A stretch of DNA of 53,433 bases, counting the filler, from Nitrospiraceae bacterium (GTDB lineage: Bacteria > Nitrospirota > Nitrospiria > Nitrospirales > UBA2166): assembly GCA_002726235.1 (NCBI GenBank). It is 3 parts of 3 records of this genome, joined end to end, with 100 filler letters (N's around TTAATTAATTAA, not from the genome) between each part and the next. Parts side by side here need not be neighbours in the genome. Positions count along the whole stretch, not along the records: positions 1 to 30,362 come from PBSN01000022.1; 2 more parts are not named here. One strand, written 5' to 3'. The translations under genes were made by a program, and so were the position numbers. Positions 350 through 30,462 of this stretch are shown here, piece after piece. Position 1 is the stretch's first letter; each line of letters opens with the position of its first letter. The notes beneath the pieces were generated by a model, which ran no database searches, was not told the DNA's origin, and saw only the letters and a program-made list of their open reading frames with translations.

Positions 350-355
350 TAAGTA

Positions 356-4305: not shown

Positions 4306-4310
4306 TCTTT

Positions 4311-6505: not shown

Positions 6506-7081
6506 ATGATTGTCCCGACACACTTCTGTAGCCTGTGCGGCGCACCCACATCACTCAGGGTTCCTTTCGGCGATGATCTCCCTCGATTTGTATGCAATGC
6601 CTGCGAGCACATTCACTACCAAAATCCTAAAATTGTTGTCGGAACCATTCCTCAGTGGGAAGACCACATCCTGCTCTGCCGCCGAGCAATCGAACCCGGT
6701 TATGGTCAGTGGACACTCCCCGGTGGTTTCATGGAAAACGGGGAAACCGTTGAACAAGGTGCGATAAGAGAAACATTGGAGGAATGCGGAGCCGAGGTCG
6801 ACATCACTTCACTCTTTTCGATCTACAGTCTTCCCCGCATCAGTCAAGTCTATATGATGTTTTGTGCAAACATGCGCGATGCAACTTTTACCGGAGGAGG
6901 GGAAACCCTTGAAGCAAAGCTATTTCGCCACGATGCTATTCCGTGGGATGCACTCGCATTTCGCGTCATACACGCCATCATGAATCACTATATCGACGAC
7001 GCCGCACACAACAGTTTCTCCATTCACATCGGAACAATTCTCCCCTCATCCGATGAACCTCTTGCCTCTCACGCGCCATGA
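6506..7081 (+). CDS. NUDIX hydrolase with N-terminal zinc ribbon
   Basis: FCSLCG and CNAC zinc ribbon, YQNPKIVVG, Nudix box GGFMENGETVEQGAIRETLEECG. Confidence 0.93.
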   Translation: MIVPTHFCSLCGAPTSLRVPFGDDLPRFVCNACEHIHYQNPKIVVGTIPQWEDHILLCRRAIEPGYGQWTLPGGFMENGETVEQGAIRETLEECGAEVDITSLFSIYSLPRISQVYMMFCANMRDATFTGGGETLEAKLFRHDAIPWDALAFRVIHAIMNHYIDDAAHNSFSIHIGTILPSSDEPLASHAP

Positions 7082-7522
7082 AACTCCCTAGATTGTCAGG
7101 TGGTCTCTGTCCAGGAGTTGTCCAGAACACTCGATCCGATGAACACATTCTGGACGAATACACATTGAGAGCTTCACAATACAACGAAAAATTGACCCAC
7201 GGTTCCGCTGTACACAGAAAATCGAAATCCTAAACGTTGATATACGGGAGTAAAGAGAATCACGTTGCGGTAGAGCCAAGCTCAAGCCGCCTGATCATTC
7301 CACGTTATACATCGCGAATGGTCGATTGAAACTTTACTACGCCATCTGCGGAAATCTCATCCTCTGCATGGCCAGTTTTGCCATGTTCGTGAGATCCTCC
7401 TCGATTTCCCACAAGCCGCAAAATCACAATCCTCGCCTATATCTCGCACATCACACCATCGCCCCAATGATCATTTAGCGGTGAGGTGTCCGAATTTTCC
7501 CTGCTTTTTCAATGAAGTTGTA

Positions 7523-7864
7523 TCAATCATAATGCACCGCGAGCCAGATCGTTTCCTGAGTATCATCCGTCCATTCGACCCGGTGTTTTCTGTGCGCATT
7601 GATGGTGACATAATCGCCTGGTTTGAGAACAATCAGTTCGTCGATGTCTTCAAATAAGATTCCCGCCCTACCCTTGAGAAGTATCACCCACTCGTTTATA
7701 TCCTGGCACAACCACGTGTCCTTCGGTGTCGAATGTCCCTTGGATATGATGCGCTCAACGCGCCAGTGCCGCCCTGCAATAACATCCTCGAATACCTCCT
7801 CGGACAGATGAGGAGGGATGTTTGAAAATAGGTTACCCCCATCCACCTCCCTGACCTTCCTCAT
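7523..7864 (-). CDS. Cupin domain protein
   Basis: VERIISKGH, EWVILLKG, LKPGDYVTINAHRKHRVEWT, TIWLAVHY. Start placed at ATG 7864 to avoid overlap with the upstream gene. Confidence 0.8.
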   Translation of the reverse strand: MRKVREVDGGNLFSNIPPHLSEEVFEDVIAGRHWRVERIISKGHSTPKDTWLCQDINEWVILLKGRAGILFEDIDELIVLKPGDYVTINAHRKHRVEWTDDTQETIWLAVHYD

Positions 7865-7926
7865 ATTCTCTGTAATCCCTGAAAGCACACTTCCCGGAGG
7901 ACAGGTCGCACTTTTGGCTGGGTTAA

Positions 7927-8757
7927 TCAAAAAAATCCGAAAAAATCCTTCAAGGAAAAAATAACTCGCCAAGTGATCAGTGGCGTAAAATCCCCATCGG
8001 ATCTTCGCTCCACCCCGTGTCCAAGTTGGACAGTATACTGTTCTGCAAAATGAATATGCACTTGCGGCATGATCATCGCCTCCTGGATCCCGGAGCTCTG
8101 GAAGGAAAAATTGGTTTCAAGGCCAGAAACGAGCCAGGAGGTGGTGTTATGAAAGAGGCTGAAATTGTACAATCCCGACACTCCCTTAGCATCGCGATCT
8201 ATTCCCTTAGTATCGCCATCTACTCCCTCAATTTTACCACCTTCGCTCTTATCATTTTGCTGCACTCCCATCATGTGCATCATACTCCACTCCCTGTTTA
8301 ACCGGTGACCAACCAAGTAGAGGGCAGTACTTTTAAACGTCTTCTTGTGGGTGTCGAGTTTCCCAAAATATTGCCATCCATGAACCAAGTGTCCATCAAC
8401 GGGTGTGCCGAAGAGACCTTGGAAGGCAACCTTATGCGCATTTGTCGCGTCATCTTTTAAGATTCGCTCGTATTCGATGCCGAATCCGTCTAAAACGGCA
8501 AGCTCAAATTCTGGGGCGATATCCAGTTTCCCTCCTTCACTGCCCATTGACTGCTGGAACAGGGAGTTTATCTCGAAGTCGCCACCTACGGAGCCAAGAG
8601 GTCGGACTAAGTCAAACACCATGGGCTCTGGAATGCGAGGAAATTTATCCTCATGCACACCAACGGCAAAGGCTGGAGACCCACCAATCCACTGCATCAC
8701 CACAAGAAAAAGCACTGTACGCAAAACCCCAATCGCCACGGTTATAACTACAGTCAC
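7927..8757 (-). CDS. Hypothetical exported protein, probable outer-membrane beta-barrel
   Basis: Signal-like N-terminus ending AFA, IPEPMVFDLVRPLG segment, alternating beta-strand pattern, aromatic-rich C-terminus. Start uncertain. Confidence 0.55.
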   Translation of the reverse strand: MTVVITVAIGVLRTVLFLVVMQWIGGSPAFAVGVHEDKFPRIPEPMVFDLVRPLGSVGGDFEINSLFQQSMGSEGGKLDIAPEFELAVLDGFGIEYERILKDDATNAHKVAFQGLFGTPVDGHLVHGWQYFGKLDTHKKTFKSTALYLVGHRLNREWSMMHMMGVQQNDKSEGGKIEGVDGDTKGIDRDAKGVSGLYNFSLFHNTTSWLVSGLETNFSFQSSGIQEAMIMPQVHIHFAEQYTVQLGHGVERRSDGDFTPLITWRVIFSLKDFFGFF

Positions 8758-9013
8758 GCAAACAAAAATTGCTGTGGCAAAAGGAGCGTGCTCAGCGGCG
8801 ATTCATCTAGTGGACGGATTGACTCGTGAGAATGTGCCAACAGCGCCGTAGCAAGCGCGTCTCCACGACCCCCATCCCAGGAACAAACAAGAGTTTGTGG
8901 CCCACCTTCACAGCCAATCCCTTGCTCTCGGTAATCACGGCATAGGCAGAAAGACACCCATCGCTGATGCCAGTCACAGATCTCATTCTTTTGTTGCGTC
9001 TTGCTCCACGGCA

Positions 9014-9457
9014 TCACGGTCCCTGCAATTCATTCCGGAGTTCATCCAATTCTCTCTTGAGGTCCTCTTCGGTTTGGGGAGAGACCCCTGCAAAGTGGAC
9101 TGCTTTTTCACCGTTAAGATGAGCAGGCGTCAAAGCGTATGTTCCGCGTATTGATACAGTCCAGATGCGACAAGCAGCAATCCCGTCGGCACCAGTGAGG
9201 ACATAGGCGATGCTTCCGGCAACTCCACCAAGCATTGCGTATGTCATTTTTGCCGGTGTGTAAAACATATTGGCAAAAAAAGCGCCGAGCTCAGCGCCCT
9301 CCTCATAGACTTCAGACTCTGCGTGGACAAACGGAACCATGAAAAGCTGGCAGGCCAGCAGTAGCAAAACGACCACCGTGAGGACTCTCTTTGTCGGCAA
9401 TACCATTGGTTTGATCTCCCTGATCGTCACCGATTTGTACTCCTCATCATACCGCAC
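9014..9457 (-). CDS. Hypothetical exported/membrane protein
   Basis: Signal peptide ending VHA-E, then a Gly/Ala-rich hydrophobic segment (YTPAKMTYAMLGGVAG). Start uncertain. Confidence 0.6.
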   Translation of the reverse strand: MRYDEEYKSVTIREIKPMVLPTKRVLTVVVLLLLACQLFMVPFVHAESEVYEEGAELGAFFANMFYTPAKMTYAMLGGVAGSIAYVLTGADGIAACRIWTVSIRGTYALTPAHLNGEKAVHFAGVSPQTEEDLKRELDELRNELQGP

Positions 9458-9771
9458 AGCGATACTCCTACATTTTCATGAACTCATTGCCTGTTCCCCT
9501 CACTTAGATAGCAAGCACACTACGCCACCACAATAATGCTGGCTCACCCACAAACTTGTGCACACCATCAACAGCACAACAGGTTATTCTGCCTTAGCAG
9601 TGTACGCTAAAAATGTTATAAATCACACCGACGGTGGTGATGTCATTATCGTTATTCGTGGGAGCCTTTCCCGACACACCGAGATACACTCCAAATGCCA
9701 ATAAAGCTCTCCAAAGAGAAAACCGCAGGGAGAGAAATATTCATGCTCCCATATAACCTCATCGACAAAAA

Positions 9772-11130
9772 ATGATGCATCGGACCCTCGGCATCAGCAT
9801 TATCTCGCTTATCATGCTCATTTTTGCCGCCTCGCAAGCATTTGCCTCCCTAGAAGACATTTTGTACGAGAAAGGAGTGATTATTACAGCCAGTGAACAT
9901 GACGCGATCAAAGCGAAAGCGGAGCGAGCACAGGAAAAACAAGAATATCAGCTACCAGTATCACTAAAGCAACCTGCTTCACCAAAAACCAAAGAGCTAT
10001 TGGATCAAGTAGAATGGAGCCCTGGAAAAGGCATGTCCTTTGGGTCAAAAGATGGAAATTATCTGACAAACATAAGATTTAGACTCCAAAGTCGTTTTTC
10101 CACCCCATTCGACTCCGATCCCAGAAAGATTGAAGATTTTGATGCGCAAAATTCCACCTCGTTCGATCTCCGTCGGGCTAGAATTAAGGTAGGCGGTCAT
10201 GGCTACAAACCGTGGATTGGATACTACTTTGAGTATGATTGGCCGTCGTCATCACTATTGGACTGGCACATCTCACTCGGAAAATATGAATGGTTCAAAG
10301 TCCGCATTGGCCAATGGAAAATCAACTATAATCGCGAACGAGTCGATTCCTCCGGAAAACAGCAGTTTGTGGAACGCTCAATAGTAAATCGTGAATTTAC
10401 GGTTGACCGGCAAAAGGGTGTCATGGCATACGGGCGTCTATTCCCAGGAACATTAGCCGACCTGAATTACTACGCGGGCGCCTTTACAGGAACAGGTCAA
10501 GGCACGCAACTTAACGATGACACGAACTTGATGTACATGGGAAGGTTACAGTGGAATTTTCTCGGCCGGGAGCTCAAGTTTTCCCAGAGTGACGTGGAGT
10601 TTCATGAAAAACCTGCCGGCAGCCTTGCATTCGGCTATGCAACGGTCGACAGCAATTGCACTCGCTTTTCCAGTGGAGGATGTGGCAACCTGGATGAGTT
10701 TACCAATTCCAATGATGCAGAGGCCGGTCAGTTTCGAATCAACCAAATAGTGGAGGAATTTGCTTTCAAATGGCGCGGCTACTCAATCCAGCATGAATTT
10801 CATTGGAAACAAATTAAAGATTCAATTGAAGGCCTCCAAACAAATCTCAGGGGTAGTTATACCCAGGCGGGATTTTTTCCCCACTACCTGATCAATGAAA
10901 TTCCTAAACAACTCGAGTTCGCGGGACGCTATGCGTTTGTCGATCCCAACACATCGGTGAAACATGCGGGAATAGACAAACGCGAGGAAGTAAGCGCTGC
11001 CATCAACTGGTTTTTCTCCGGACACAACAACAAGGTCACCCTTGGGGTCAGCCACTTAACCATTGCAGAGTTAAACGCGATGAACCGCAGTGATGAACGC
11101 ATTCAACTCCAGTGGGATATCTCTTTCTAG
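9772..11130 (+). CDS. Porin, phosphate-selective OprO/OprP-like family
   Basis: Signal peptide (AFA-S), FDLRRARIKVGG, IGQWK, QQFVERSIVN, RLQW, C-terminal IQLQWDISF. Directly upstream of pstS. Confidence 0.8.
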   Translation: MMHRTLGISIISLIMLIFAASQAFASLEDILYEKGVIITASEHDAIKAKAERAQEKQEYQLPVSLKQPASPKTKELLDQVEWSPGKGMSFGSKDGNYLTNIRFRLQSRFSTPFDSDPRKIEDFDAQNSTSFDLRRARIKVGGHGYKPWIGYYFEYDWPSSSLLDWHISLGKYEWFKVRIGQWKINYNRERVDSSGKQQFVERSIVNREFTVDRQKGVMAYGRLFPGTLADLNYYAGAFTGTGQGTQLNDDTNLMYMGRLQWNFLGRELKFSQSDVEFHEKPAGSLAFGYATVDSNCTRFSSGGCGNLDEFTNSNDAEAGQFRINQIVEEFAFKWRGYSIQHEFHWKQIKDSIEGLQTNLRGSYTQAGFFPHYLINEIPKQLEFAGRYAFVDPNTSVKHAGIDKREEVSAAINWFFSGHNNKVTLGVSHLTIAELNAMNRSDERIQLQWDISF

Positions 11131-11177
11131 CGAACACACCACACAACCATACTGGCACCCTGCCAAAGGAGAAACGG

Positions 11178-12164
11178 ATGATCGTACGTCGTATCGCAAG
11201 CAGCCTGATAGGAATTGGGTTAATTGGATCGTTCATATGCAGCACCGCCTTTGCCCAAAGAGTCGTCCCAATTGATCCCTCACTCAAACCCTACACTAGA
11301 ATCAGCGGCATCTCAGGAAATCTCGGCAGCATTGGTTCTGACACTCTGAACAACCTCATGACGCTCTGGGCCGAAGGATTTCGAAAACAATATCCGGCCG
11401 TGAAAATACAGATCGAAGGGAAAGGGTCGAGCACGGCCCCTCCTGCCCTCATCAATGGAACAGCCCACCTTGGCCCAATGTCGCGAAAGATGAAAGGGAC
11501 AGAGCTTGATCGATTTGAGGATAGGTTCGGATATCCGCCCGCAGTATTCAGAGTTGCCGTGGATGCGCTCGTGGTGTACGTCAACAAGGACAATCCCATC
11601 CCCGGAATAACCTTAGCAGAACTTGACGCCGTCTTTTCCAAGCAGCGGCGACGGAAACATGCCACGCCAATCACGAAGTGGAAGGATGTGAAAATTAAGG
11701 GACCACTCGCACAATCTACCATAGGTCTCTACGGCCGAAATGCAGCCTCTGGCACCTATGGATTCTTCAAGAAGCTGGTCTTGAAAAACGGCGATTTCAA
11801 AGATGTCGTCAAGGAACAACCCGGATCGGCCTCTGTAGTGCAAGGAATCACCAAAGACATCACAGGAATCGGCTATAGTGGGATTGGCTACAAAACATCG
11901 GGCGTGCGAGGTGTTCCGCTCGCGGTTTCTGAGAGCAAACCATTTGTGAAGGCCAACTACGCCAACGTCATGAACGGATCCTATCCCATCTGGAGACATC
12001 TCTACATCTATGTCAACAAAGCGCCTAACACACCAGTATCGCCGCTCATCGCGCAATTTTTGACGTACCTCTACAGCAAAGATGGCCAGCAAATAGTGGT
12101 AAAAGATGGATACTTTCCACTCTCCGCGCCTGACGTGCAAGAGGAACTCAACAAATTGCACTGA
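11178..12164 (+). CDS. pstS: Phosphate ABC transporter substrate-binding protein PstS family
   Basis: IGSDTLNNL, EGKGSSTAPPAL, MSRKM, VAVDAL, GRNAASGTYGFFK, IGYSGIGY, YPIWRHLYIY. AAGGAG precedes ATG 11178. Confidence 0.92.
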   Translation: MIVRRIASSLIGIGLIGSFICSTAFAQRVVPIDPSLKPYTRISGISGNLGSIGSDTLNNLMTLWAEGFRKQYPAVKIQIEGKGSSTAPPALINGTAHLGPMSRKMKGTELDRFEDRFGYPPAVFRVAVDALVVYVNKDNPIPGITLAELDAVFSKQRRRKHATPITKWKDVKIKGPLAQSTIGLYGRNAASGTYGFFKKLVLKNGDFKDVVKEQPGSASVVQGITKDITGIGYSGIGYKTSGVRGVPLAVSESKPFVKANYANVMNGSYPIWRHLYIYVNKAPNTPVSPLIAQFLTYLYSKDGQQIVVKDGYFPLSAPDVQEELNKLH

Positions 12165-12258
12165 CGGGAAGAACGCGATATCGCGAATAAACATCCGTAA
12201 AAGACGGGCGGCATCCCACAAATGTCACTGCCGTGCGATCACAGTCAAATTGCAGAAA

Positions 12259-12305
12259 TGATAATTTAATAGCATAAACTGCGTAATTATATGCTAAAAT
12301 TATCA
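12259..12305. promoter_or_regulatory. AT-rich inverted repeat just upstream of the AlgE-like gene (operator-like)
   Basis: TGATAATTTAATAGCATA ... TATGCTAAAATTATCA; the arms pair apart from a 2-nt indel. Confidence 0.45.
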
Positions 12306-12309
12306 CACT

Positions 12310-13713
12310 ATGCAGACCGCCATGGGACTCGTTGTCGCCGCAATGTTTTTCGGTGCCCACATAGCCTTCCTCTCAATCGACTGTGCATTGGCATCAGGGC
12401 TCCAATCTGCCCCCTCCCCGGATCATGCTCTAATCCAAACCAAAGAAACCACATGGTCCCGGTATCTGCAATCCACGGCAGCACTTCCGGATTGGGTTGA
12501 TCTCGGAATTGAACAACGTACTCGCGTGGAAAGTTTCGATCATCCGTTTCGCCCCGGTGAGTTTGACACCAACGCCCAGATGCCCCTTCGCTCACGCGTG
12601 CGGTTCGGGCTGAACGGTCCATCTAGCCGCTTCCTGTTTGAAGGGCAAGACTCTCGGAGTCTCGGAACAGATCCAGGAGAGTTTACGGATAACAGGCTGG
12701 AAAATACTACCGATGTAGTGCAACTACTCGGTTCATTCACACTACACAACGTATTGGGAACGGGCCTTCGTACTGACATGCACATCGGCCGAATGACGAT
12801 GGATTTCGGGCGCCGCCGCTACGTCGCCCGAAACGATTTCCGCAATACCACGAACTCATTTAATGGCGTGCATTGGCAGGTGGCCCGAGAGAACGCTTGG
12901 CGGCTCCGAGCGTTTTTTACGCTTCCCACCATCCTCCGAGAACAACGTGCCGATACATTTGATACGGACTTTGCATTTTGGGGAACCTACTACGAGACCC
13001 AGCAGATGCCATGGATCCACACCAACCTCTATTACTTCGGCCTGAATGACCAACGCTCAACCAGCACCAAGCACCGACAGCTCCATACCTTTGGAGGGCG
13101 CGTGTATGCACCATCAAAAGCTGGGCAGATTGATTATGAAATCGAGGTAGCGGGACAAGGAGGGCATAGGGGCACAAAGGATCATTCCGCGTACAACCCT
13201 CACGTGGAACTGGGATACAGCTTCAATCTGCCATGGTCCCCACGTCTGCTCGCCCAATATGATTATGCCAGTGGCACGCGATCGCCAAACGGCAATCAGA
13301 GTCACACCTTTGACAACCTATTCGGAGCACGGCGATTTGAGCTGGCACCGACAGGAACGTTTGGTCCCTTTACTCGATCCAACATCAGCTCACCTGGTTG
13401 GCGTGCCATGGCGCAACCTGCCAGAGGATGGAAACTCCAGATCAAACATCGGATCTGGTATTTAGCCCAGGCTCGCGACCAGTTTGCGGGATCAGGACTC
13501 CACGATATGACTGGCAGATCGGGAAACTTCCTCGGACAGGATATCGAGCTGCAAGCGCGCTGGAAGATCAACGCCAATATGGAATTTGACGTGGGCTATG
13601 ATCATTGGTTCAAGGGTAGTTTTTTCAACCGGCTCCCCACATCAGCATCATTGCCCGCAGGCGGCGAGAAGGATACGCATTATTTCTACCTGTCAACAAA
13701 GATAAGATTCTGA
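12310..13713 (+). CDS. Alginate export (AlgE-like) outer-membrane beta-barrel
   Basis: GRMTMDFGRRRYVARNDFRNTTNSFNG, YDYASG, TFDNLFGARRF, LGQDIEL, C-terminal Phe. Confidence 0.8.
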   Translation: MQTAMGLVVAAMFFGAHIAFLSIDCALASGLQSAPSPDHALIQTKETTWSRYLQSTAALPDWVDLGIEQRTRVESFDHPFRPGEFDTNAQMPLRSRVRFGLNGPSSRFLFEGQDSRSLGTDPGEFTDNRLENTTDVVQLLGSFTLHNVLGTGLRTDMHIGRMTMDFGRRRYVARNDFRNTTNSFNGVHWQVARENAWRLRAFFTLPTILREQRADTFDTDFAFWGTYYETQQMPWIHTNLYYFGLNDQRSTSTKHRQLHTFGGRVYAPSKAGQIDYEIEVAGQGGHRGTKDHSAYNPHVELGYSFNLPWSPRLLAQYDYASGTRSPNGNQSHTFDNLFGARRFELAPTGTFGPFTRSNISSPGWRAMAQPARGWKLQIKHRIWYLAQARDQFAGSGLHDMTGRSGNFLGQDIELQARWKINANMEFDVGYDHWFKGSFFNRLPTSASLPAGGEKDTHYFYLSTKIRF

Positions 13714-21077: not shown

Positions 21078-21205
21078 CTCCAGAAGGAGGGAAGTGAATA
21101 GTCGACAGCACTTGCGAGTCAGCGAGTATTTGCTGCCGACAGTCAATCTTCTCCTTTCGTGATTGGTGGTGTGCCTCTTTACGTTTTAATTTGACGGAGG
21201 ACGAT

Positions 21206-22096
21206 ATGCGTATAGTTGTTGGAATAAGTAGCGACGATCAGACATTTTCTCTCCTGCGCGTAGCCGCTCAACTCTATCCCCAGGCGGCATTCACATTGGT
21301 ACACGCGATCGATCACGGGCTCACACGATATCCAACTCTCGGAACCAAGGCTCGGGATAAGGTGCACGAGGAAATGTCTCCTCTCCTAGACGCCGGGCAC
21401 ACACTCCTAGAGAAGGCGGCAAAGTCTATCCCGGCTGACCTAAACATCACGCCTGAGACCGCGTGCAGCCTTGGAAATCCATCACGTCTGATTATCAAGG
21501 CTGCGGAGAAGAAAGCAGCTGACTTGATTATCATTGGCTCACGTGAGCACCAGCACGAGGAGAGAGAGTTCACACTCGGCTCCACCTCCCACCAAACCGC
21601 AAGCCATGCTCCTTGCGCGACATTGACCATTAAAAACACCCAGATAACTCAGATCCGTCGCGCATTGATCGCCGTTAAATCGCCTGACGACAGCGCGCAA
21701 ATTTATCGCTGGCTTGCGTCTAACCCATTTCATAGCCCAGTCGAGGTGACTATACTGCATGTTGTGCCAGCACTTCACTCGTATCTCGCGAATCACGCAC
21801 TGGCTCAGTACGATCAATGGCATGACTTTTTACATAATGATTCGATGGGGTCGGGACAAGATTTCGTGGATAACGTCTCAGCAATGTTCACTAAACCACC
21901 AGCAAGCAACCATTACAAGGCGCACGGACAGATTGCCAATGGCGATCCTGCAGACATCATTATCAAGGAAGCAGCCCAGTATGACCTGGTGATTGTAGGA
22001 TCCTCTGGTGCCTTGAGCGCAATTCGGTTCCTCTACGGAAGCGTCGTACAGAAAGTCATCCATCGTATCTCCATTCCCATCATGATCACCGGATAG
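21206..22096 (+). CDS. Universal stress protein, two USP domains
   Basis: GNPSRLII...ADLIIIGSR...LGST and GDPADIII...DLVIVGS...YGSVVQKV. GGAGG precedes ATG 21206. Confidence 0.88.
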   Translation: MRIVVGISSDDQTFSLLRVAAQLYPQAAFTLVHAIDHGLTRYPTLGTKARDKVHEEMSPLLDAGHTLLEKAAKSIPADLNITPETACSLGNPSRLIIKAAEKKAADLIIIGSREHQHEEREFTLGSTSHQTASHAPCATLTIKNTQITQIRRALIAVKSPDDSAQIYRWLASNPFHSPVEVTILHVVPALHSYLANHALAQYDQWHDFLHNDSMGSGQDFVDNVSAMFTKPPASNHYKAHGQIANGDPADIIIKEAAQYDLVIVGSSGALSAIRFLYGSVVQKVIHRISIPIMITG

Positions 22097-22412
22097 GAGA
22101 AGCTTCTCTCGTTAACCCGTAACACTATACGAATGTTTCGCCGGAAACATTGCGTACACCCCGATTCAACATCTTCCGTGTTTACTACCCGCAAACAGTA
22201 TTGTTCGCACAAATAACATTTGTGAGACACCTGCTTGCATTTTTATTCCGAAGGGTATATTGACTGTTGGATTATGTATTTCCTGCACTCTGCGCTCTCA
22301 CTCAATCTCCCCTATAGGCGTGGGAAGGGAACATGAGTACATCATGAGTACATGTAGCGACACACTAAACGACGCCGTATTTAAAAGTAGCGAGGAACCT
22401 CGTCGTCGACTC

Positions 22413-23474
22413 ATGAGATCGAAATTTCAGCCACGGAGTACGGGAGCACTTGTCTCGACACTCTTGCTCGTCAGCGGGCTGTTTATAATCAGCACATCAA
22501 CCACCTATGCATCTCACCTTGGGCAGTCGCCATCGCGTGCTGCACTAGTCGACCCTGTTCCTTCAAATCCCGTGAGCGGACGGGCTGTTTCGATTGAAAC
22601 ACTTACTACTGCAGATGTCTTGGCTCGCGTCAACCTCGTTCGTGCTACGCTTGACCAGATCCGCATCGAAATGGGCCAACCGAAAGATCAGCGGGTAGAG
22701 ATTGTGGCAAGCAACGTCACGCCACGTGAAGCGGTGTTTAAAGCATTCACGTTGCTTCGCAAAGCGAACCATTTACGCTTCGAAGTCACAGGGACCATAA
22801 CCCCTGAAAAGCAGATCGCTATCCCACACGACATTCATCCACTTCACACATGGAGAATCGTGAATGCGGCTTACGGCCCTCTCCTCACCGTAAAACACAC
22901 CCTTGGGATTCACGAACAAATCAAAGAGCAGCAGCAAACAGCCGGTGTGACGCCGAGCACTCTGTTTCGCGCTATGGCAGCAGCCAACCGTCAGTTTGAT
23001 ACGTTGTTCATGCAAGGGGTTTCATCCAATAACACCGTGCAGCAAGTGGCATTGGCCAGCGGTCATACAATGCGCCTGTTAGAGCAGTTTCCACAACGTG
23101 TCCCGGTGTCGACGATGCCGGAATTCGAACGTGGCAAGCAACCGGGTGAGGTGCATGCCCTCCTTGTACGGGCGTACGAGAAAGTCCGCGCAATCGCCAC
23201 AGCATCAGGGGTGCCGACCATGAAACTTGAGGTTGTTCCCTCGAAACGATCCCACATAATCACCGCCAGCGATGTCTTTGACGTAGCCATTATCCTCGTA
23301 TCTCAATTGGCATATCTCCATGGACAGCTTCAGGATACCGACCCAACTGGCATAAGCTTTGACCCCGGCTACAAGGTTGCGTCACACGTTTATCAACAGG
23401 CCTCATTGCTGCTGGCCCAACTCACCACCTTAGAGTTGTATGTGAATGAAAATCCAGAATGGCTTGTTCGCTGA
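22413..23474 (+). CDS. Hypothetical exported protein with about eight helical repeats
   Basis: Signal peptide ending TYA-S and recurring TP/TA-x-D/E-V capped amphipathic helices. The ORF track allows upstream starts from 22260. Confidence 0.7.
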   Translation: MRSKFQPRSTGALVSTLLLVSGLFIISTSTTYASHLGQSPSRAALVDPVPSNPVSGRAVSIETLTTADVLARVNLVRATLDQIRIEMGQPKDQRVEIVASNVTPREAVFKAFTLLRKANHLRFEVTGTITPEKQIAIPHDIHPLHTWRIVNAAYGPLLTVKHTLGIHEQIKEQQQTAGVTPSTLFRAMAAANRQFDTLFMQGVSSNNTVQQVALASGHTMRLLEQFPQRVPVSTMPEFERGKQPGEVHALLVRAYEKVRAIATASGVPTMKLEVVPSKRSHIITASDVFDVAIILVSQLAYLHGQLQDTDPTGISFDPGYKVASHVYQQASLLLAQLTTLELYVNENPEWLVR

Positions 23475-23538: not shown

Positions 23539-26500
23539 GTGAGTACGGCGCAGACTTCCGAACATCGCACAGTAGGTGCAAACGCAGGAGCCGTCTCCTC
23601 TTCTATGCTAACCGAGGCAGAGTGCGAGAAGCTTCGAGTTCTAGTATCACAGGCGGCCGAGGTCATTTCCCCAAACTGGCCAATGCGAACGTTTGCTTAT
23701 CGCAATTCCTTGATGGGGTTTGAGCATCTGCACTTTCATGACGCGATCTCGCACGCGAAGGACCTGCTGGGAGGAGAAGGCTATCTTTCGATTGCAGAGT
23801 ATCGCGCGTGCTACGCCGCAGGCCGGATTTCCGAGAAAGAACTTCTGGACGCTCTGCGCTCGAGGGAACCAACGCTTGCAACGCAGGACAGCATTCGTGT
23901 TGGAAAGCAAAGTTTTCACCCTGAAACAATTCTTCTGCCTCACTTTGTATACGGTATCGATTCGCTCAATCCCAAATTGTTGCAGTGGCAATTAACGGAG
24001 GGAAATGCTTCTCGCCGTATCCGTCCTGATGTTCCCCAGACCATCAAGGATCAGCTGCTAGCATACGACGAGGAAGAGTTCTACATCCATTTGCTGTGGT
24101 CCAAGAGCTTGGAAGCACTTGCGATCTCTGAAGATGGATTGCCTGAATCCTACAAACATGCCGCCACTGAAGACACGGCGCACTCGACCCACCAGAGCAT
24201 CCGTACCGCAGCTGAGATCCTCGACGATCTTATCAACTCTGATCTGAACCGAGATATCAATGAACACATGGTCAAATGGTGCGCGGCATTTGCAGATGAA
24301 GGCATGGCAGATTGGTCAATGCCTTCACGTACAGACGGATTTTATGCCGCTTGGAAAAATATTGCTCGCCGCGAAGCATTCCGGTGGACCCTGGGAAGTT
24401 CTTCCTCAGCACAAGGAATGCGGACGCTCCCTGAACGCCCTGAAGACGCTATCGCGTTAAGCTTTGCCCTCCTGAGAATCCCCGAGCAACATCAGGAACA
24501 GTACCTACGTCGGCACCTCAGCCAGCTACCAGGCTGGACAGGCTATATTCGCTGGAGATCAAAGAATCCTGATTATCCTGAACAAGGCCGTCACCCAATT
24601 GATCCGCTGGAATACCTGGCCGTACGAATGTTTTACGAGGTTGAGCTGGCCAAAATAGTTTGTCAGCGCACATGGGGCATTAACCCAGAACTTCCCGATC
24701 TCATCGCACGTGCCCAATCCAAGAAGCTGGAGAACTCCGACGCTCATGCTCATGACTTGTACACAGAAGCGGTTTGCCAGGACGCTTGGCGTCTCTTCCA
24801 TCTGGCACAGTTCCTCGATATTCACCCGGAAGATCTTCAAACGTTGTCGCCAGAAGATGCTAGATCACTGCTATCCTGGCTCAACCGATTTCCGACTGAC
24901 GTACTCCGCCCTATCTGGCACGAAGCCTACGAAGCACAGTATCGAAATTCCCTGCTTACGCGACTGATTAGTCATCGTCAGAGACCTGGATACAACGAGA
25001 GCACCCAACATCCGAGACCGCGAGTGAACGCCGTATTCTGTATCGACGCTCGCTCCGAGTCTTTTCGTCGCCACTTGGAAGCCCAAGGTGGATATGCCAC
25101 GATCGGGTTCGCTGGATTCTTCGGGACGCCAATCTACTACCGGCTACTCGATCGAGAAGAAGAGTTGCTCCTTTGTCCTGTCCTGATCAAACCAAAATAC
25201 GAGGTGAGGGAGGGCCCGCGGTGGAATCAAGACCCCGAGGTACTCGAGTACATGCTTGGAGACCAGTGGAGTCGCTTTGGCCACCACCTCTTCCACCAAA
25301 TCAAATCAAACCCTACAAGTTCCTATCTCACATTCGACCTGTTTGGATTTGTGTTTGGGCTGGTAATGCTGGGAAAGACCTTGCTCCTAAAGCCCTATGA
25401 CCTTATTCGTGAATGGTTTCGTCGCTGGCTCGTTCCCCCGGTCGCAACCCAAATCCCAGTAGAGAAATTCCCTGAAGAAGAGCGTGAAGCCTTCATTGCT
25501 GGCAATCAACGAGCTCTTATCTCCGAGGCGTTCGAACACCGATTTAGCCACCGGCACGACGTGGTTGCACTCCCACAGAGCATCCTTGAAGCATTTCGCC
25601 TCGCTGCCCTTGGGGAGCCCGAAGATCGCAGTTATCGTACGACGCGACAAATTGCAGCCTCCGAACAACTAGGTCTTTCGGTAGACGAAGAGCAAGATTT
25701 TCTAGAGGAGCTCCGATCCGATCACGGGATTAACTCCCTTACCCACCAAGCACAGCTCAAATACTTTGCCGAACGCAGATTCTCCCCGGCAGAACAAGCA
25801 GCAGTAGTCGAAAACTCGCTCCGTGTTATGTGCCTAACCAAAGGATTCGCGCGATTGGTTCTTCTCTGCGCCCATGGAAGCACTACGGAGAACAATCCGT
25901 ATGCCTCCGCGTACCATTGTGGGGCATGTGGCGGAAACCCGGGGGGGCCGACTGCCAGAGTCCTGGCGTCCCTGGCCAACAGAGTGTCCGTCCGTCAAGA
26001 GCTATGGGATCTGGGGATCGAAATTCCCAACGACACGTGGTTCATTGCCGGTGAACACAATACAACTACGGATCGTGTCGCCTTGTTTGATTTAGAGGAA
26101 GTTCCCGAGGGACACCGACCGGATTTGCTCCAGTTGCAAAAGGATCTGGAAGCGGCTTGGCGCCGAAATACCCAAGAGCGCTGCAATCGTCTACCAAAAG
26201 CCCCCAGTCGATCACCATCAACGGCCACTGCCCGCCACACATGGAACTCGAGCCGTGACTGGGCTCAAGTCAGACCGGAGTGGGGACTCTCGAGCAACGC
26301 CGCTTTTGTGATTGGACGGCGCTCTCTCACGCAGGGCCTCACGCTTGACGGTCGATCCTTTCTTCACAATTACGACCAATCGCAAGACACAACAGGCAGG
26401 ACGCTGGAAACTATCATGACCGCTCCGTTGGTAGTTGTGCAAACAATCAACTCGCAATATTTTTTCTCTGCGACGGACACGTGGGCGTACGGATCCGGAA

Positions 26501-26820
26501 CCAAAGTCTTGCATAACGTCGTTAGTGGAGTCGGGGTGATGCTCGGAAGACACAGTGATCTACAAACAGGGTTTCCCCTACAATCCATGACAACGGGGGC
26601 CTCTCGATTTCATGAGCCACTTCGTATCCTTGCAATCATCGAGGCAGACACGGAAAGAATTTCCTCCATCATTTCCCGTCATGAGGTACTTCAGAGATTT
26701 TTCACCAATGAGTGGATGTACCTTGTCTCTTGCTGTCCTACAACAGGAACATTTTCTCAATATCACCCGGAAGGAACCTGGAAAATGATTGCATCGCCAA
26801 TTAGCCAGGACAAGAGCTAA
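23539..26820 (+). CDS. dabA: DUF2309 inorganic carbon transporter subunit DabA (beta-CA-like)
   Basis: ISPNWPMRTF, LPGWTGYIRWR, Zn-site motifs FCIDARSESFRRHLE, GFAGFFG, CAHGS, NNPYAS, CGACGG, HNTTTD, DWAQVRPEWGL, GRSFLHNYD, GSGTKVLHNV, HEPLR. Confidence 0.95.
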   Translation: MSTAQTSEHRTVGANAGAVSSSMLTEAECEKLRVLVSQAAEVISPNWPMRTFAYRNSLMGFEHLHFHDAISHAKDLLGGEGYLSIAEYRACYAAGRISEKELLDALRSREPTLATQDSIRVGKQSFHPETILLPHFVYGIDSLNPKLLQWQLTEGNASRRIRPDVPQTIKDQLLAYDEEEFYIHLLWSKSLEALAISEDGLPESYKHAATEDTAHSTHQSIRTAAEILDDLINSDLNRDINEHMVKWCAAFADEGMADWSMPSRTDGFYAAWKNIARREAFRWTLGSSSSAQGMRTLPERPEDAIALSFALLRIPEQHQEQYLRRHLSQLPGWTGYIRWRSKNPDYPEQGRHPIDPLEYLAVRMFYEVELAKIVCQRTWGINPELPDLIARAQSKKLENSDAHAHDLYTEAVCQDAWRLFHLAQFLDIHPEDLQTLSPEDARSLLSWLNRFPTDVLRPIWHEAYEAQYRNSLLTRLISHRQRPGYNESTQHPRPRVNAVFCIDARSESFRRHLEAQGGYATIGFAGFFGTPIYYRLLDREEELLLCPVLIKPKYEVREGPRWNQDPEVLEYMLGDQWSRFGHHLFHQIKSNPTSSYLTFDLFGFVFGLVMLGKTLLLKPYDLIREWFRRWLVPPVATQIPVEKFPEEEREAFIAGNQRALISEAFEHRFSHRHDVVALPQSILEAFRLAALGEPEDRSYRTTRQIAASEQLGLSVDEEQDFLEELRSDHGINSLTHQAQLKYFAERRFSPAEQAAVVENSLRVMCLTKGFARLVLLCAHGSTTENNPYASAYHCGACGGNPGGPTARVLASLANRVSVRQELWDLGIEIPNDTWFIAGEHNTTTDRVALFDLEEVPEGHRPDLLQLQKDLEAAWRRNTQERCNRLPKAPSRSPSTATARHTWNSSRDWAQVRPEWGLSSNAAFVIGRRSLTQGLTLDGRSFLHNYDQSQDTTGRTLETIMTAPLVVVQTINSQYFFSATDTWAYGSGTKVLHNVVSGVGVMLGRHSDLQTGFPLQSMTTGASRFHEPLRILAIIEADTERISSIISRHEVLQRFFTNEWMYLVSCCPTTGTFSQYHPEGTWKMIASPISQDKS

Positions 26821-26831: not shown

Positions 26832-29045
26832 ATGGTAGACTTCGCGTACATTCTTATCCCGATTCTCCCCCTTGCGGCTTTCTTGATCATTGCGCTGGGT
26901 AGTCGATGGCTGGGCGAGGCAAGCCATCGGTTGGCTATCCCAGCAGTCTCCACTTCATTCATTCTTTCGATTCTTGCCTGTATTGACGTGTACCAAAACG
27001 GCCCTAGGTCGATCCCGCTATATTCCCTTATCAGCGAAGGCGCCTTGACCATCAACGTGAATCTCTATGTCGACGCGATCACAGCAATGCTGCTGCTGCT
27101 TATCACTGGAGTGAGCAGTCTCGTTCACGTCTTTTCCAGCCGGTACATGCAAGCGGATCCGCGTTACGCCCGTTTCTTTGCTGTAATCGCACTCTTTACT
27201 TCTGCCATGATCATGTTAGTCATGAGCGGAAATCTCCTGATTTTATTCATGTTCTGGGAGATCATGGGCCTGTGTTCTTACTTGCTAATTTCCCATTGGT
27301 CTCGCCGTCCGTCAGCCTGCAACGCCGCAACAAAAGCCTTTCTGGTGAATGCGGTGGCAGATATCGGCCTCGTGTTTGGAATATACCTGACGTGGGATAC
27401 TTTCGGCACTCTTGATATTCAGACGATCCTGTCCACTGTATCAAACTACACCGATCAGACAGTCAACCTCCTTGGATTTATTGGTCTCGAGTGGCAAGTC
27501 CCTATCCTCTCCATCATTGCATTACTGCTGCTCATGGGCCCTATTGGAAAGTCCGCGCAGATTCCGCTTCACGTCTGGCTTCCATTTGCAATGGAAGCTC
27601 CGACTCCGGTGTCTGCACTCATCCACGCGGCAACTATGGTCAACGCAGGTGTGTATCTCCTGATCCGGATGGGACCACTTTATCTTTTGACTCCGTCCAT
27701 CATGACTGTAGTGGCGATCGTCGGTGGTTTGACCGCCCTCTTTGCCGCTGTGGTGGCTCTCACCCAATTTGATATCAAGCGCATTCTGGCGTATTCAACA
27801 ATCAGCCAACTCGGGTTTATGGTTCTCGCGTGTGGGGTCGGCGCTTATGGCGCCGCTATTTTTCATCTCCTCACCCATGGAGCCATGAAGAGTTTTCTGT
27901 TTCTCTCCGCAGGCAACGCTCTTGAAAGTCTCGGGAAGTCTCACCATGGCACCCACGAAGGCACCCACAGCCCCCCCCGTACACAAAACACACGGCACCT
28001 CTTTCCTCTCTACGCCGGATCATTTATCCTGGCGTTGATCCCTCCCCTCATTATTTTCTCTGGTCCTTATGAACAGCTGTGGACCGTCTCGGGGCTTGTC
28101 CAAGCCCAAGTCCTTTTCTGGATCCTTGGGTTGGCAACCGTGTTTTTCGCGGGCTTCTATTTGTTTCAGGGAATACTAGAACTCTTCAAGCCGCCCGGTC
28201 GCATCGACTGGTACAAGGGATTTCGTCTAGGCATGCTGCGACCCCGCATTTTTTCGGCCTCGCTGCTTCTTGGACTCATTCCCATGACGGCCGGGCTAGC
28301 TGTTTTTCTCATCCTCGTCTGGAATGGTTTTCTCGAATTCATCTCTCCAGCTCTCCCAGTGGGAGATTTGGATCATGCACCAACCCCGACCGCACACATG
28401 TTCTCTCTCGACTACGGGTTGAGATTTCCTGGGACAACCCATGCTGAGCTAGTACCCTCGACCGCGACATCGCCACTCATGAGCATGAGCATCGGCTTTG
28501 GTGTCGCAATAGCCGGCTGGGCGACAGCGTTCTATGCCTATATGTTCCCACCACGCCTCTCACCCCGATGGAAAGAATACAAAAAAACGCTCTATGTATT
28601 CTTTCTGAACAAAGGCTACTTCGACGAAATGTATGAGGTCGTATTCATTCGCCCCAGCTTGCGGCTTACCTCATGGCTCTGGCGAGTTGTCGATAGAGGG
28701 ATTGACCAAACATACATGGCAGCAGCCGGCACCTCCGCCCAGACGGCCCGTTGGCTCTGGCAAGTTGTCGATAGAGGGATTGACCAAACATACATGGCAG
28801 CAGCCGGCACCTCCGCCCATATAGCCCGCTCACTATGGAAAGGGGTAGATGTAAATCTCATCGACCGACCTGCCAACAAGTTTGCAACCATATCATTTGA
28901 AATCGCAACGAAAATTTCGAAAGTCTTTTCCGTTAAGAAAGACGCTGAACCTAAGCTATCCCGAATTCTTTTGGTGTTTCTTGGTGTGCTTCTTGTTCTG
29001 GTCGTGGTCATTGAGTTCTTGTTCTCACAGATCATGAAAGGATGA
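26832..29045 (+). CDS. dabB: NuoL-like antiporter-family membrane subunit paired with DabA (DabB equivalent)
   Basis: FWEIMGLCSYLLI, GKSAQIPLHVWLP, MEAPTPVSALIHAATMV, DIKRILAYSTISQLG, FHLLTHGAMKS, NKGYFDEMY. Starts 11 nt after dabA. Confidence 0.85.
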   Translation: MVDFAYILIPILPLAAFLIIALGSRWLGEASHRLAIPAVSTSFILSILACIDVYQNGPRSIPLYSLISEGALTINVNLYVDAITAMLLLLITGVSSLVHVFSSRYMQADPRYARFFAVIALFTSAMIMLVMSGNLLILFMFWEIMGLCSYLLISHWSRRPSACNAATKAFLVNAVADIGLVFGIYLTWDTFGTLDIQTILSTVSNYTDQTVNLLGFIGLEWQVPILSIIALLLLMGPIGKSAQIPLHVWLPFAMEAPTPVSALIHAATMVNAGVYLLIRMGPLYLLTPSIMTVVAIVGGLTALFAAVVALTQFDIKRILAYSTISQLGFMVLACGVGAYGAAIFHLLTHGAMKSFLFLSAGNALESLGKSHHGTHEGTHSPPRTQNTRHLFPLYAGSFILALIPPLIIFSGPYEQLWTVSGLVQAQVLFWILGLATVFFAGFYLFQGILELFKPPGRIDWYKGFRLGMLRPRIFSASLLLGLIPMTAGLAVFLILVWNGFLEFISPALPVGDLDHAPTPTAHMFSLDYGLRFPGTTHAELVPSTATSPLMSMSIGFGVAIAGWATAFYAYMFPPRLSPRWKEYKKTLYVFFLNKGYFDEMYEVVFIRPSLRLTSWLWRVVDRGIDQTYMAAAGTSAQTARWLWQVVDRGIDQTYMAAAGTSAHIARSLWKGVDVNLIDRPANKFATISFEIATKISKVFSVKKDAEPKLSRILLVFLGVLLVLVVVIEFLFSQIMKG
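28674..28829 (+). repeat. In-frame 78-bp tandem duplication (2 x 26 codons) in the NuoL-like transverse helix
   Basis: Copies 28674-28751 and 28752-28829 match at 73 of 78 nt and encode WLWRVVDRGIDQTYMAAAGTSAQTAR and WLWQVVDRGIDQTYMAAAGTSAHIAR. Confidence 0.95.
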
Positions 29046-30362
29046 ACATGGATAGTTTGGTCTCCCATCTGGTGAGTTGGATTGTGTTGACCCCCTTCAT
29101 TGGGATGGTCATCATCGGATTCCTGCGCCATGCTGAAGTCATTCGCTGGGCGACTCTCGCTACCACCTTGCTCGTACTCGGCCTTACCCTGGGCTTGTGG
29201 GCTGGATTTGATCACACCGCTACAGGAATGCAGTTTGTCGACCGCGTAGCACTAGGAATTTTCTCCTTCCAATACGCAGTTGGCGTGGACGGCATCAGCT
29301 TACCACTGATTCTGCTCACCGCATTCCTTATCCCTTTGTGCGTCCTAGGATCCTGGACAGGTATCAAGGAGAACGTAAAGGCCTTCATGTTGCTCATCCT
29401 TCTGGTGGAAGGAGCCGTGGCTGGCGTATTCACTGCTCTGGACACGTTCCTTTTTTTCCTCTTCTGGGAAATCACGATGATTCCCATGTATTTCATGATC
29501 GCGCTATGGGGAGGCCCCAACCGAATTCAAGCAGCAGTCAAGTTCCTCCTGTTCAGCGTGGCGGGAAGTCTATTACTCAACCTTGGGATTGAGGCTCTAC
29601 ATCACGAAGGAGGAAATACATACGATGTTGTGGCTCTGACCCAGGTAGAATTTTCCCCCGAGGTTCAGTTTTGGATTTTCCTGGCACTGTTTGTGGGATT
29701 CGCGATTAAAGTACCCATGCTTCTCGTCCATGGTTGGATTGCCGATGCGCACGGTGAGGCACCAACGGCAGGCAGCGTTATCCTCTCTGGACTCTTGCTC
29801 AAGATGGGAGCTTACGGATTTCTTCGCTTCTGTCTCCCGATCTTTCCCGAGACCTCGGTAGCATTCGCCCCGTTCATCCAGTGGCTCTCCGTCCTAGCTA
29901 TTCTCTACGGCGGCGCCATGGCCCTTGCACAACATGATTTCAAACGCCTTATCGCCTATTCCTCCATCGCCCATATGGGATTCGTCACCTTGGGTATTTT
30001 TGGGTTCAACAATCAAAGCGTCCAAGGCGCCGTCCTTCAGATGGTCAATCACGGAATTACCACCGGTGCCCTGTTCCTCATAGCTGGCATGTTGTACGAC
30101 CGCACGCATGACCGGACGATCGACAATTATGGAGGGTTGCATCAGGTGATGCCGAGATTCGTGGTGGTTTTAGGCATTTTTGTCGTGGCAGCCTTTGGAT
30201 TGCCGGGAACCGGAAATTTCATCGGAGAGTTCCTCGTTTTGGCCGGAACTCTCTCGCATAGTTACCTCATGGTCCTGCTTGTCTTGGCAGGAATTGTGCT
30301 TGGCGCCGCCTACATGCTCGGGATGTTTCAACGGATGGCACTGGGCCCTGTCTCCCCTCAGA
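29042..30362 (+). CDS. nuoM: NuoM-like antiporter subunit (3'-truncated by contig end)
   Basis: GVDGISLPL, FWEITMIPMY, AIKVP, AHGEAPTAGSVILSGLLLKMGAYG, KRLIAYSSIAHMG, QMVNHG, GLPGTGNFIGEF. ATGA overlap with the upstream stop. Confidence 0.9.
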
Positions 30363-30462
30363 NNNNNNNNNNNNNNNNNNNNNNNNNNNNNNNNNNNNNN
30401 NNNNNNTTAATTAATTAANNNNNNNNNNNNNNNNNNNNNNNNNNNNNNNNNNNNNNNNNNNN
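30363..30462. other. Artificial contig spacer
   Basis: 44 N + TTAATTAATTAA (stops in all six frames) + 44 N. Base composition changes abruptly across it. Confidence 0.98.

Follow-up and report, generated by a model that had tools for sequence, protein, structure and literature searches.

The gene cluster described here raises the question of whether the length of the lateral helix (HL) of a NuoL-type antiporter-like subunit follows the number of NuoM-type subunits encoded beside it. The cluster belongs to a Nitrospiraceae bacterium (GenBank assembly GCA_002726235.1), and in it a NuoL-type gene lies directly behind the gene for DabA, the beta-carbonic-anhydrase-like subunit of DAB-type CO2 hydration pumps. 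The whole stretch of DNA analyzed, called the window below, has 53,433 nucleotides and is a concatenation; its bases 1 to 30362 are contig C22 of a 1.87-Mb genome in 27 contigs that is 90.65% complete. A preliminary description, made from the sequence alone, had noted two near-identical units of 26 amino acids (aa) in the HL region of the NuoL-like protein. It had proposed that the helix was lengthened in whole-subunit steps, the latest of them recent, and that it could clamp up to two extra NuoM-like subunits in a DabA carbon pump rather than in a respiratory complex I. Whether the HL of NuoL is a coupling rod or a mere clamp has long been debated.

Tandem units in the lateral helix of the NuoL-type subunit

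An in-frame 78-bp tandem duplication has very recently added one unit to the NuoL-type subunit of the window. Tandem Repeats Finder located a period-78 array at positions 28674 to 28819 (1.9 copies; score, 285). By direct reading, the two units of 78 bp each are in frame, identical at 73 of 78 bases (5 differ), and share an identical core of 56 nucleotides (nt); at the protein level they differ at 3 of 26 residues (R/Q, Q/H, and T/I). The translation across the repeat is ...TSWLWRVVDRGIDQTYMAAAGTSAQTAR WLWQVVDRGIDQTYMAAAGTSAHIAR SLWKGVDVNLIDRPANKF..., after which the hydrophobic C-terminal helix follows. The copied unit has the pattern WLWxVVDxxGID..., or, written out further, W-L-W-x-V-V-D-x-x-G-I-D-R...S...A-R. 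A third stretch of the protein (SLWKGVDVNLID...) is a diverged copy of the 26-aa unit, giving three units in total: two near-identical new copies and an old terminal unit. The latter is the sole copy kept by relatives with one unit, and canonical NuoL has it too. The units were scored with a hidden Markov model (HMM) built from 198 units. The features of the gene, in window positions and with TM denoting a transmembrane helix, are as follows.

26832..29045, plus strand: NuoL-type antiporter-like subunit, 737 aa, with C-terminal TM15, lateral helix, and TM16 (PF00361 and PF00662)
28620..28673, plus strand: start of the lateral helix, FDEMYEVVFIRPSLRLTS, kept in canonical NuoL (alignment to Paracoccus Nqo12; AlphaFold helix H597-647 begins here)
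28674..28751, plus strand: unit 1, aa 615 to 640, WLWRVVDRGIDQTYMAAAGTSAQTAR (unit HMM, 34.2 bits)
28752..28829, plus strand: unit 2, aa 641 to 666, WLWQVVDRGIDQTYMAAAGTSAHIAR, the recent copy (73/78 nt identical to unit 1; unit HMM, 34.6 bits)
28830..28907, plus strand: unit 3, aa 667 to 692, SLWKGVDVNLIDRPANKFATISFEIA, the old terminal unit (unit HMM, 10.2 bits)
28953..29039, plus strand: C-terminal transmembrane anchor TM16, about aa 708 to 736 (AlphaFold helix H708-736; mean 19-residue hydropathy up to 3.3)

Tail lengths were measured from the N-K-G-Y-F-D anchor. The tail of the window protein has 145 aa, and those of one-unit relatives have 92 to 109 aa. Much of the preliminary description was therefore borne out: the ~52 extra residues hold against one-unit relatives, the two units were recovered by repeat finding and by direct reading, the hydrophobic helix behind them is present in the translation, and domain scans, alignments, and the structural model show that the repeat is part of the HL region in a NuoL-type protein encoded beside DabA.

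Support for the duplication in metagenomic sequences

Logan contigs from four marine runs of four studies were placed on positions 27800 to 30362. The junction between units 1 and 2 (28751/28752) is bridged by record 14 of run X4, which covers positions 28698 to 28792 (54 and 41 letters on the two sides), and by record 3 of run X1, which covers positions 28712 to 28781 (40 and 30 letters). X1 and X4 come from different studies, and one of the two runs may be the source sample. For the region 28674 to 28829, where the preliminary description had called for spanning reads, the junction is thus bridged by contigs from two studies.

It is hardly credible that the assembler built the tandem copy from two alleles of a single unit. 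The identical 56-nt core of both units could not be resolved by short k-mers, and one metagenome contig, L177, has the same sequence with one unit fewer. However, the junction sequence cannot occur in a one-copy allele and is nevertheless present in the two bridging records, which argues that the duplication is not an assembly artifact. The 737-aa form also appears again in a second protein, P0002, which has both units and two substitutions and is listed with 6 member sequences.

Over 2346 nt, contig L177 matches the window without a mismatch (100% identity), apart from exactly 78 nt that are absent inside the repeat. Either the population of the window genome does contain a two-unit form, to which L177 belongs, or L177 was collapsed in assembly across the 56-nt core. 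Since the two copies are 94% identical and L177 is otherwise identical in nucleotide sequence, the last duplication step is very recent, as had been supposed. A genuine L177 would mean that two units and two NuoM-type genes are the resident state and that the window form is a new step, unmatched by a third NuoM-type gene.

The operon and the families of its proteins

The genes around the NuoL-type gene on contig C22 are the following.

21191..22096, plus strand: universal stress protein (Usp) gene, 301 aa, upstream of the operon (PF00582; E value, 4.6e-31)
22260..23474, plus strand: open reading frame (ORF) of 404 aa without family assignment, between Usp and DabA
23539..26820, plus strand: DabA, 1093 aa, beta-carbonic-anhydrase-like subunit of DAB-type CO2 hydration pumps (PF10070 over the whole profile; E value, 5.1e-247)
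29042..30362, plus strand: NuoM-type subunit, here called M, cut at aa 440 by the end of contig C22 (TIGR01972, 504.5 bits against a cutoff of 263.8)

DabA matches the solved DabA2 chain 9rd0_A with an E value of 4.6e-99. The NuoL-type gene begins 11 nt past the DabA stop codon, and a PF10070 gene is thereby followed on the same strand by a PF00361 membrane gene. By this gene content, the operon is predicted to encode a complex with the activity of a DAB-type CO2 hydration pump.

The 737-aa protein belongs to the NuoL/ND5/NdhF type by its domains (PF00662, E value of 4.3e-17; PF00361, E value of 1.3e-62), by the subfamily cutoff of TIGR01974 (NDH_I_L; 486.7 bits against 407.5), and by its TM15-HL-TM16 extension. 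On the equivalog model NF005141 it scored 493.9, under the cutoff of 556. The elements of the C-terminal extension in the AlphaFold model are H548-571, H597-647 and what follows it, and H708-736, with low confidence in the geometry of the HL. A partner of the DabB type would have ~15 TM helices and a short HL; the window partner has 737 aa, a long HL region, and a terminal transmembrane anchor. The start of M overlaps the NuoL stop by 4 nt, and M passes the NDH_I_M cutoff (TIGR01972) despite its truncation.

A respiratory 2M complex I does not fit the gene context. The HL insertion and probably two M genes are present, but the flanks are not nuo genes: no nuoA-K, nuoH, or nuoN lies beside the window operon, which is bordered upstream by Usp, the ORF without assignment, and DabA and downstream by a sulfate-permease-family (SulP) gene. 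The genome has nuo-like clusters of its own on contigs C3 and C17. The host of the repeat is thus a DabA operon rather than a respiratory complex I, as first described. No Mrp/Mnh small subunits were found in the window operon by Pfam scan, and the MnhE, MrpF, MbhD/E, MnhB, and NuoK-like proteins of a relative gave no tblastn match above 60 bits genome-wide.

Usp genes also border the operon in relatives, where they follow the last M gene in 16 of 19 distinct loci. The 404-aa ORF had no Pfam or NCBIfam match, and BLAST labels showed no counterpart of it adjoining DabA in any relative's locus, so that it is seen in the window only.

Nature of the unit and structure of the lateral helix

Residues 585 to 623 of the window protein, at the start of the HL, align to residues 612 to 650 of the 703-residue Paracoccus Nqo12. 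In the L-M-N clusters of relatives, canonical NuoL has one partial unit match (ELWKRVDVEVIDGAVNG) in 9 of 9 loci examined, indicating that the unit is a segment which ordinary NuoL has once, at the start of the HL. Their hydropathy marks the units as amphipathic segments that do not cross the membrane.

The AlphaFold model of the window NuoL, based on a 73-row alignment, has a mean predicted local distance difference test (pLDDT) score of 72.3 and a confident antiporter core. The best Foldseek matches in the PDB were the NdhF and NuoL chains 6khj_F and 7z7s_L (E value, 1e-22), and the top 50 were all NuoL, ND5, or NdhF chains; the root mean square deviations of 15 to 18 Å reflect the unreliable placement of the HL. 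In this model, a helix at residues 597 to 647 runs from the canonical start through unit 1 and into the beginning of unit 2 (pLDDT, 35 to 67). A clade-B protein with three extra units, modeled from a 39-row alignment, has a helix of 77 residues (H567-643) over two units, followed by two helices and TM16 (pLDDT, 35 to 67). In both models the long helix runs on from the canonical HL start into the first units, and they are weakly consistent with units that prolong the HL.

Copy number of the unit in relatives

Relatives were gathered by a protein search (8000 hits, of which the best 120 were listed) and three DNA scans, and 220 loci with a full or partial homologue were obtained. They fall into the DabA-adjacent clade, to which the window belongs, and an Mrp-linked sister clade. 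Members of the former are 60% to 96% identical to the window protein, and their DabA, NuoL, and NuoM genes are directly adjacent and usually followed by Usp and SulP. Proteins of the Mrp-linked clade are ~50% identical to the window protein, and the gene order is DabA, MnhE, MrpF, MbhD/E, MnhB, NuoK-like, a 489-aa antiporter-like protein, NuoL type, and NuoM type, as labeled by Pfam on locus L038 and by BLAST elsewhere. Almost all Mrp-linked loci with sufficient flanking sequence have DabA a few kb upstream, before the Mrp genes.

The unit is a copy-number-variable module of the DabA-linked NuoL family, with 0 to 5 extra copies and many gains and losses. In the DabA-adjacent clade, tails with two units have 118 to 120 aa and thus lie between the one-unit tails and the window tail. 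The 127 distinct Mrp-linked proteins fall into six tail length classes of 79 to 81, 109, 134 to 138, 157 to 166, 190 to 192, and 218 aa, which hold 10, 3, 59, 46, 8, and 1 proteins with 0 to 5 extra units, respectively. The classes are spaced by ~27 aa. HMM counts miss some degenerate units (several proteins counted as two-unit have three-unit tail lengths), and the Mrp-linked counts therefore use tail length classes. When a tree of 142 distinct proteins was computed with the repeat region left out, the unit number class changed on it at least 28 times.

Over the 198 units, D7 is kept in 97%, D12 in 91%, S22 in 85%, and A26 in 80%; W-L-W was prescribed by the seed pattern with which the units were gathered. 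A recent duplication also took place independently in protein P0004 (74% identity), whose own two 27-aa units are nearly identical to each other. P0004 has another, smaller tandem duplication (LSKVVDVK/LSKVVGGK) near the end of its HL, at about residues 700 to 716. Another protein, P0003 (660 aa), was considered as a close one-unit relative and rejected: its first ~505 residues are those of the window protein and its tail is that of another lineage, and it is either a recombinant or a chimeric metagenome assembly.

The Mrp-linked cluster extends over positions 1968 to 12611 of locus L038 and occurs in most of the loci L038 to L095, L112 to L176, and L196 to L256, in Nitrospirales and in records labeled Nitrospina, Bryobacterales, Planctomycetia, and others. 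It is also present in locus L077 of a genome (G004) from the same genus as the window genome, with a NuoL that is 47% to 54% identical to that of the window. This type of cluster was not found in the window genome, which has the DabA-adjacent type. One type may stand in for the other, or one of them may have arrived by transfer.

A second NuoM-type gene on the adjoining contig

Contigs C22 and C15 overlap exactly by 59 nt (end of C22, beginning of C15), and across this overlap M reads as an ORF of 502 aa. A second NuoM-type gene, M' (502 aa; PF00361, E value of 3.8e-73), begins five bases after M, and the two are 83% to 84% identical. Downstream of M' on C15 is the SulP gene, followed by gyrA and gyrB on the other strand. 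The extension past position 30362 that the preliminary description had proposed thus supplied the rest of M, M', and SulP, and the window operon is DabA-NuoL-NuoM, continuing with M' and SulP on the adjoining contig. A 1611-nt contig from run X2, which spans M through 237 nt into the start of M', backs the order of M and M'.

The two M genes have a completely identical 3' stretch of 550 nt (window positions 29813 to 30362; about positions 1091 to 1640 of C15, locus L257), which accounts for the assembly break at the end of C22 and is a sign of recent gene conversion. In the relatives L100 and L098, the members of the M pair are 97% and only 65% identical, respectively. A copy of the last codons of NuoL (...PQIMKG stop) precedes M' (C15, 297 to 320), indicating that M' arose by a tandem duplication that started inside the 3' end of NuoL.

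No third M gene was found by tblastn across this 90.65% complete genome, in which only M (C22), M' (C15), and distant complex I paralogues (C3 and C17) were present. Depth in the 3' part common to M and M' is about double that of NuoL, 30.3 versus 17.3 in X1 and 19 versus 10.7 in X4, which fits two copies and not three; depths are one figure per contig and serve as hints only, and stretches left uncovered in some runs carry no information.

Number of units and number of M genes

Nineteen distinct DabA-adjacent loci with complete downstream context were compared. All 14 loci with a single unit have a single M gene, whereas three of the five loci with two units have two M genes (L098, L100, and L102, the last with frameshifted M genes). 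Fisher's test gives a P value of 0.010 for this coupling, which is overstated, as the loci are related. Loci with two M genes occur in three lineages, namely, L100/L102, L098, and the window genome. The expectation that the number of units would follow the number of nuoM genes was therefore borne out in part: in the DabA-adjacent clade, a second M occurs only with a second unit (3/5 versus 0/14), but L181, L227, the window genome, and the 127 Mrp-linked loci depart from it. The proposal that the helix clamps up to two extra NuoM subunits, one for each unit, was not supported, as three units are accompanied by M and M' only and the depth fits two copies.

In loci L101 and L180, the N-terminal core of NuoL resembles that of the two-unit L100 group, and the tail is a one-unit tail of the L104 lineage with a 17-aa loop (DDHDPLYRLGGAVPHHATDPRF). 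The M protein of L101 is ~85% identical to the M of the one-unit group and 73% identical to that of L100. Tail and M seem to have been exchanged as one cassette (the M evidence comes from L101 and not from L180).

The reading that we favor, to which we give about an even chance, is that the HL is an adjustable strap: extra units permit, and often accompany, an extra NuoM, and their number is not a strict count of subunits. Copies would be gained and lost by slippage or unequal recombination between adjoining units. Each copy would lengthen the amphipathic strap between TM15 and the TM16 anchor by 26 to 27 residues, corresponding to ~39 to 40 Å if helical, roughly the width of one antiporter-like subunit. 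With each copy, the strap would thereby extend farther over the NuoM-type subunits lined up beside the NuoL that carries DabA. Strap length and M number would be loosely coupled, and the unit would act as a permissive extension module.

Several observations weigh against this reading. Two units go with one M in L181 and L227; in L181 the single M may be an assembly collapse, given the 97% identity of M and M2 in the relative L100. In the window genome, three units are followed by M, M', and then SulP only. All 127 distinct Mrp-linked loci keep one M, whether they have no extra unit or as many as 5 (M genes in several pieces are frameshift fragments that sum to one gene), and a single M orthologue is present genome-wide in five of five genomes with 0, 2, 3, 4, and 4 extra units. 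Nor do the absolute numbers agree with complex I, where the canonical HL, with one unit, extends over both M and N; here the one-unit HL accompanies only one M gene. With respect to structure, unit 2 of the window protein is drawn mostly as coil, with two short helices before TM16 (residues 708 to 736), and the repeat has a pLDDT of 35 to 67 in both AlphaFold models. Moreover, the period is 26 aa in some lineages and 27 aa in others, which in an ideal unbroken helix would rotate the W-L-W face by 80 or 180 degrees with every unit; the computed direction of the face is ~300 to 325 degrees in unit 1 and 25 to 45 degrees in unit 2. The strap must therefore be kinked or re-registered in each unit, or else it is not a simple straight helix. 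Finally, the contigs at the junction are shallower than their flanks (5.9 versus 17.3 in X1 and 6.19 versus 10.7 in X4), a hint that two- and three-unit forms may be mixed in these samples. Given L177 and this low depth, the new unit may be neutral.

The extra units that lack an extra M, in the window, in two relatives, and in the whole Mrp-linked clade, point to a permissive module rather than a strict counter. If the unit were a strict ruler, each 26- to 27-aa unit would stand for exactly one more antiporter-like subunit in the row, here NuoL and three M-type positions, and the Mrp-linked rows would have up to five more, filled by the product of the single M gene. The size of the step matches that of the 26-aa insertion tied to a fourth pumping subunit in 2M complex I (PMC9040806), and DabA-adjacent loci with one unit have one M without exception, two M genes being found only with two or more units. 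D7, D12, S22, and A26 are kept, as expected if each unit docks on a subunit, and near-identical proteins could fill M positions, as with the M and M2 of L100 or the 550 identical nt of M and M'. We nevertheless consider a strict ruler improbable. It is at odds with the three units and two M genes of the window genome, with L181 and L227, and with the Mrp-linked clade, in which gene content is constant over all classes; in addition, each of the at least 28 changes in unit number would need a changed stoichiometry of the complex, and L177, which lacks the extra unit, implies that both lengths may coexist in one population unless it is collapsed. It is improbable to the same degree that the unit number sets the count of antiporter-like subunits through variable rows of up to about seven in the Mrp-linked clade, with copies of the single M protein in the extra places. 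If it did, populations could adjust the ion-to-CO2 gearing of the pump through the rapid turnover of 26- to 27-aa units, and the window would have caught a shift in progress, with a three-unit form beside the state of two units and two M genes.

The HL might instead be a hot spot for in-frame tandem duplication in which slack is tolerated; the number of units would then be meaningless and the third unit of the window neutral or mildly harmful. L177 as a possible version without the unit from the same population, the shallow junction contigs (a weak hint), the many gains and losses, the constant gene content of the Mrp-linked clade, the additional small duplication at the HL end of P0004, and the low AlphaFold confidence in the repeat all agree with such tolerated polymorphism. 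A slack linker would be expected to degenerate, however, whereas old, diverged units keep the motif across proteins that are ~50% identical. Lengths are sharply quantized, with no intermediate sizes, second M genes occur only alongside extra units, and the tail and the M gene move together as a cassette. We regard a meaningless length as rather unlikely, though more likely than a strict ruler.

An explanation that we hold to be very improbable is that the extra units bind some other partner: the enlarged cytosolic arm or elbow of a long DabA, the co-encoded SulP, or the second protomer of a dimer. In solved complex I and Mrp structures, the HL contacts antiporter-like subunits. The length of DabA, moreover, does not obviously follow the number of units, as it is 999 to 1048 aa in most Mrp-linked loci of all unit classes. 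Another partner would, on the other hand, explain why the units vary at a constant M number. The window DabA has ~190 residues (559 to 748) between the two best-aligned blocks, where DabA2 has ~83 (chain residues 410 to 493), and SulP is a conserved member of the neighborhood (also PMC5700660).

Genome context and distribution

In the window, the end of C22 is followed by a spacer of N's with a ttaattaattaa linker (30363 to 30462). The VIT, HD, and epimerase genes after this spacer belong to another contig and are not context for the operon. At the start of contig C3 (locus L267, positions 1 to 5990), four antiporter-like ORFs of 335 (cut), 586, 536, and 490 aa lie in a row, and the 586-aa ORF has one weak match to the HL unit. 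The arrangement resembles a nuo-like cluster of an unusual kind, in which two of the subunits are L- or MrpD-like.

Window positions 28400 to 30362 are present at least in part in 20 of 24 listed public runs from 12 studies. These runs are marine, seawater, plankton, and hydrothermal vent metagenomes, which indicates a widespread marine organism.

Comparison with known systems

Length variation in the HL bears on the rod-or-clamp debate, and the one natural variant found in the published passages is a single fixed 26-aa insertion. In the DabA-linked family, straps ranging from 0 to 5 extra units occur naturally, and some of them differ between near-identical sequences. The family also belongs to a simpler system, DabA with two or three antiporter-like subunits, for which rescue of Escherichia coli lacking carbonic anhydrase can serve as an assay, so that the relation between strap length and the assembly of antiporter-like subunits is directly testable. 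Furthermore, DabA in Nitrospirales and in some other lineages is linked to full NuoL/NuoM and Mrp-type modules and not to a minimal DabB, which bears on how CO2 pumps are energized in marine and soil nitrite oxidizers.

The structures of the vectorial carbonic anhydrases DAB2 (DabA2-DabB2) and DAB1 (DabA-DabB-DabC) have been solved (PMC13144422; 10.64898/2026.05.01.722082). DabB2 has 15 TM helices and only a short HL (PMC13144422), and the DabC of DAB1 occupies the NuoM-proximal position, is half the size of NuoM, and is noncatalytic (PMC13144422; 10.64898/2026.05.01.722082). As in these systems, the window DabA is encoded beside a PF00361 NuoL-like subunit. Unlike in them, DabA is paired with a complete NuoL-type protein whose HL is long and is followed by TM16, and full-length NuoM-type proteins (one or two across loci) are added.

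The neighborhood ybcC (DUF2309)-nuoL-nuoM-SulP was described in 2017 as "clade C" of COGNAT (PMC5700660). Its gene set and order, with DabA upstream of nuoL, NuoM, and a sulfate-permease-family gene, are those of the window together with C15. The passage on clade C concerns the neighborhood and does not mention the lateral helix, repeats, or duplication of M (PMC5700660).

Mrp-type antiporter clusters with extra nuoL- and nuoM-like genes are known from Nitrospira and have been treated as Na+/H+ antiporters (PMC7784846, PMC12342949). They resemble the Mrp-linked sister clade, whose loci have MnhE, MrpF, MbhD/E, MnhB, NuoK-like, 489-aa antiporter-like, NuoL-type, and NuoM-type genes. The descriptions in these sources make no mention of DabA (DUF2309 occurs 0 times in the text of PMC7784846), whereas the sister clade has DabA upstream. 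The window operon differs from the Nitrospira clusters in having no Mrp small subunits.

The closest known counterpart of the repeat is the 26-aa HL insertion in NuoL of the Nitrospira 2M complex I and in MrpD2 of Complex_I_3 of "Ca. Manganitrophaceae," for which Chadwick et al. 2018 is cited there (PMC9040806, PMC6606698). The insertion of about the length of the unit that the preliminary description had mentioned is thus in print. In the window genome, the tail of its own 2M-type NuoL (locus L268, C17, 8464 to 8903, minus strand, cut by the contig end) reads FDRLVIDRIINGVA, followed 26 residues on by a degenerate IEKHVIYAGLNLTG. The published 2M insertion may be an old copy of the same HL unit, judging by eye from one sequence. 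The passages obtained in a literature search contain no description of tandem or copy-variable HL units; supplementary Fig. S2 of PMC9040806 and Fig. S1 of PMC5700660 may bear on it. The 2M insertion and the window repeat are alike in lying in the HL of a distal antiporter-like subunit, in the 26-aa step, and in their link to an additional NuoM. They differ in their hosts, a nuo operon in the one case and a DabA operon in the other, and in their history. The 2M insertion is a single fixed and old one, whereas the DabA-linked repeat is tandem, recent, and variable in copy number (0 to 5 extra units), and it does not correspond one-to-one with M. While a 26-aa insertion in the HL was already known, it is new that the HL of the DabA-linked NuoL is built from a copy-variable module of 26 to 27 aa, and the window holds one of the most recent additions of a unit.

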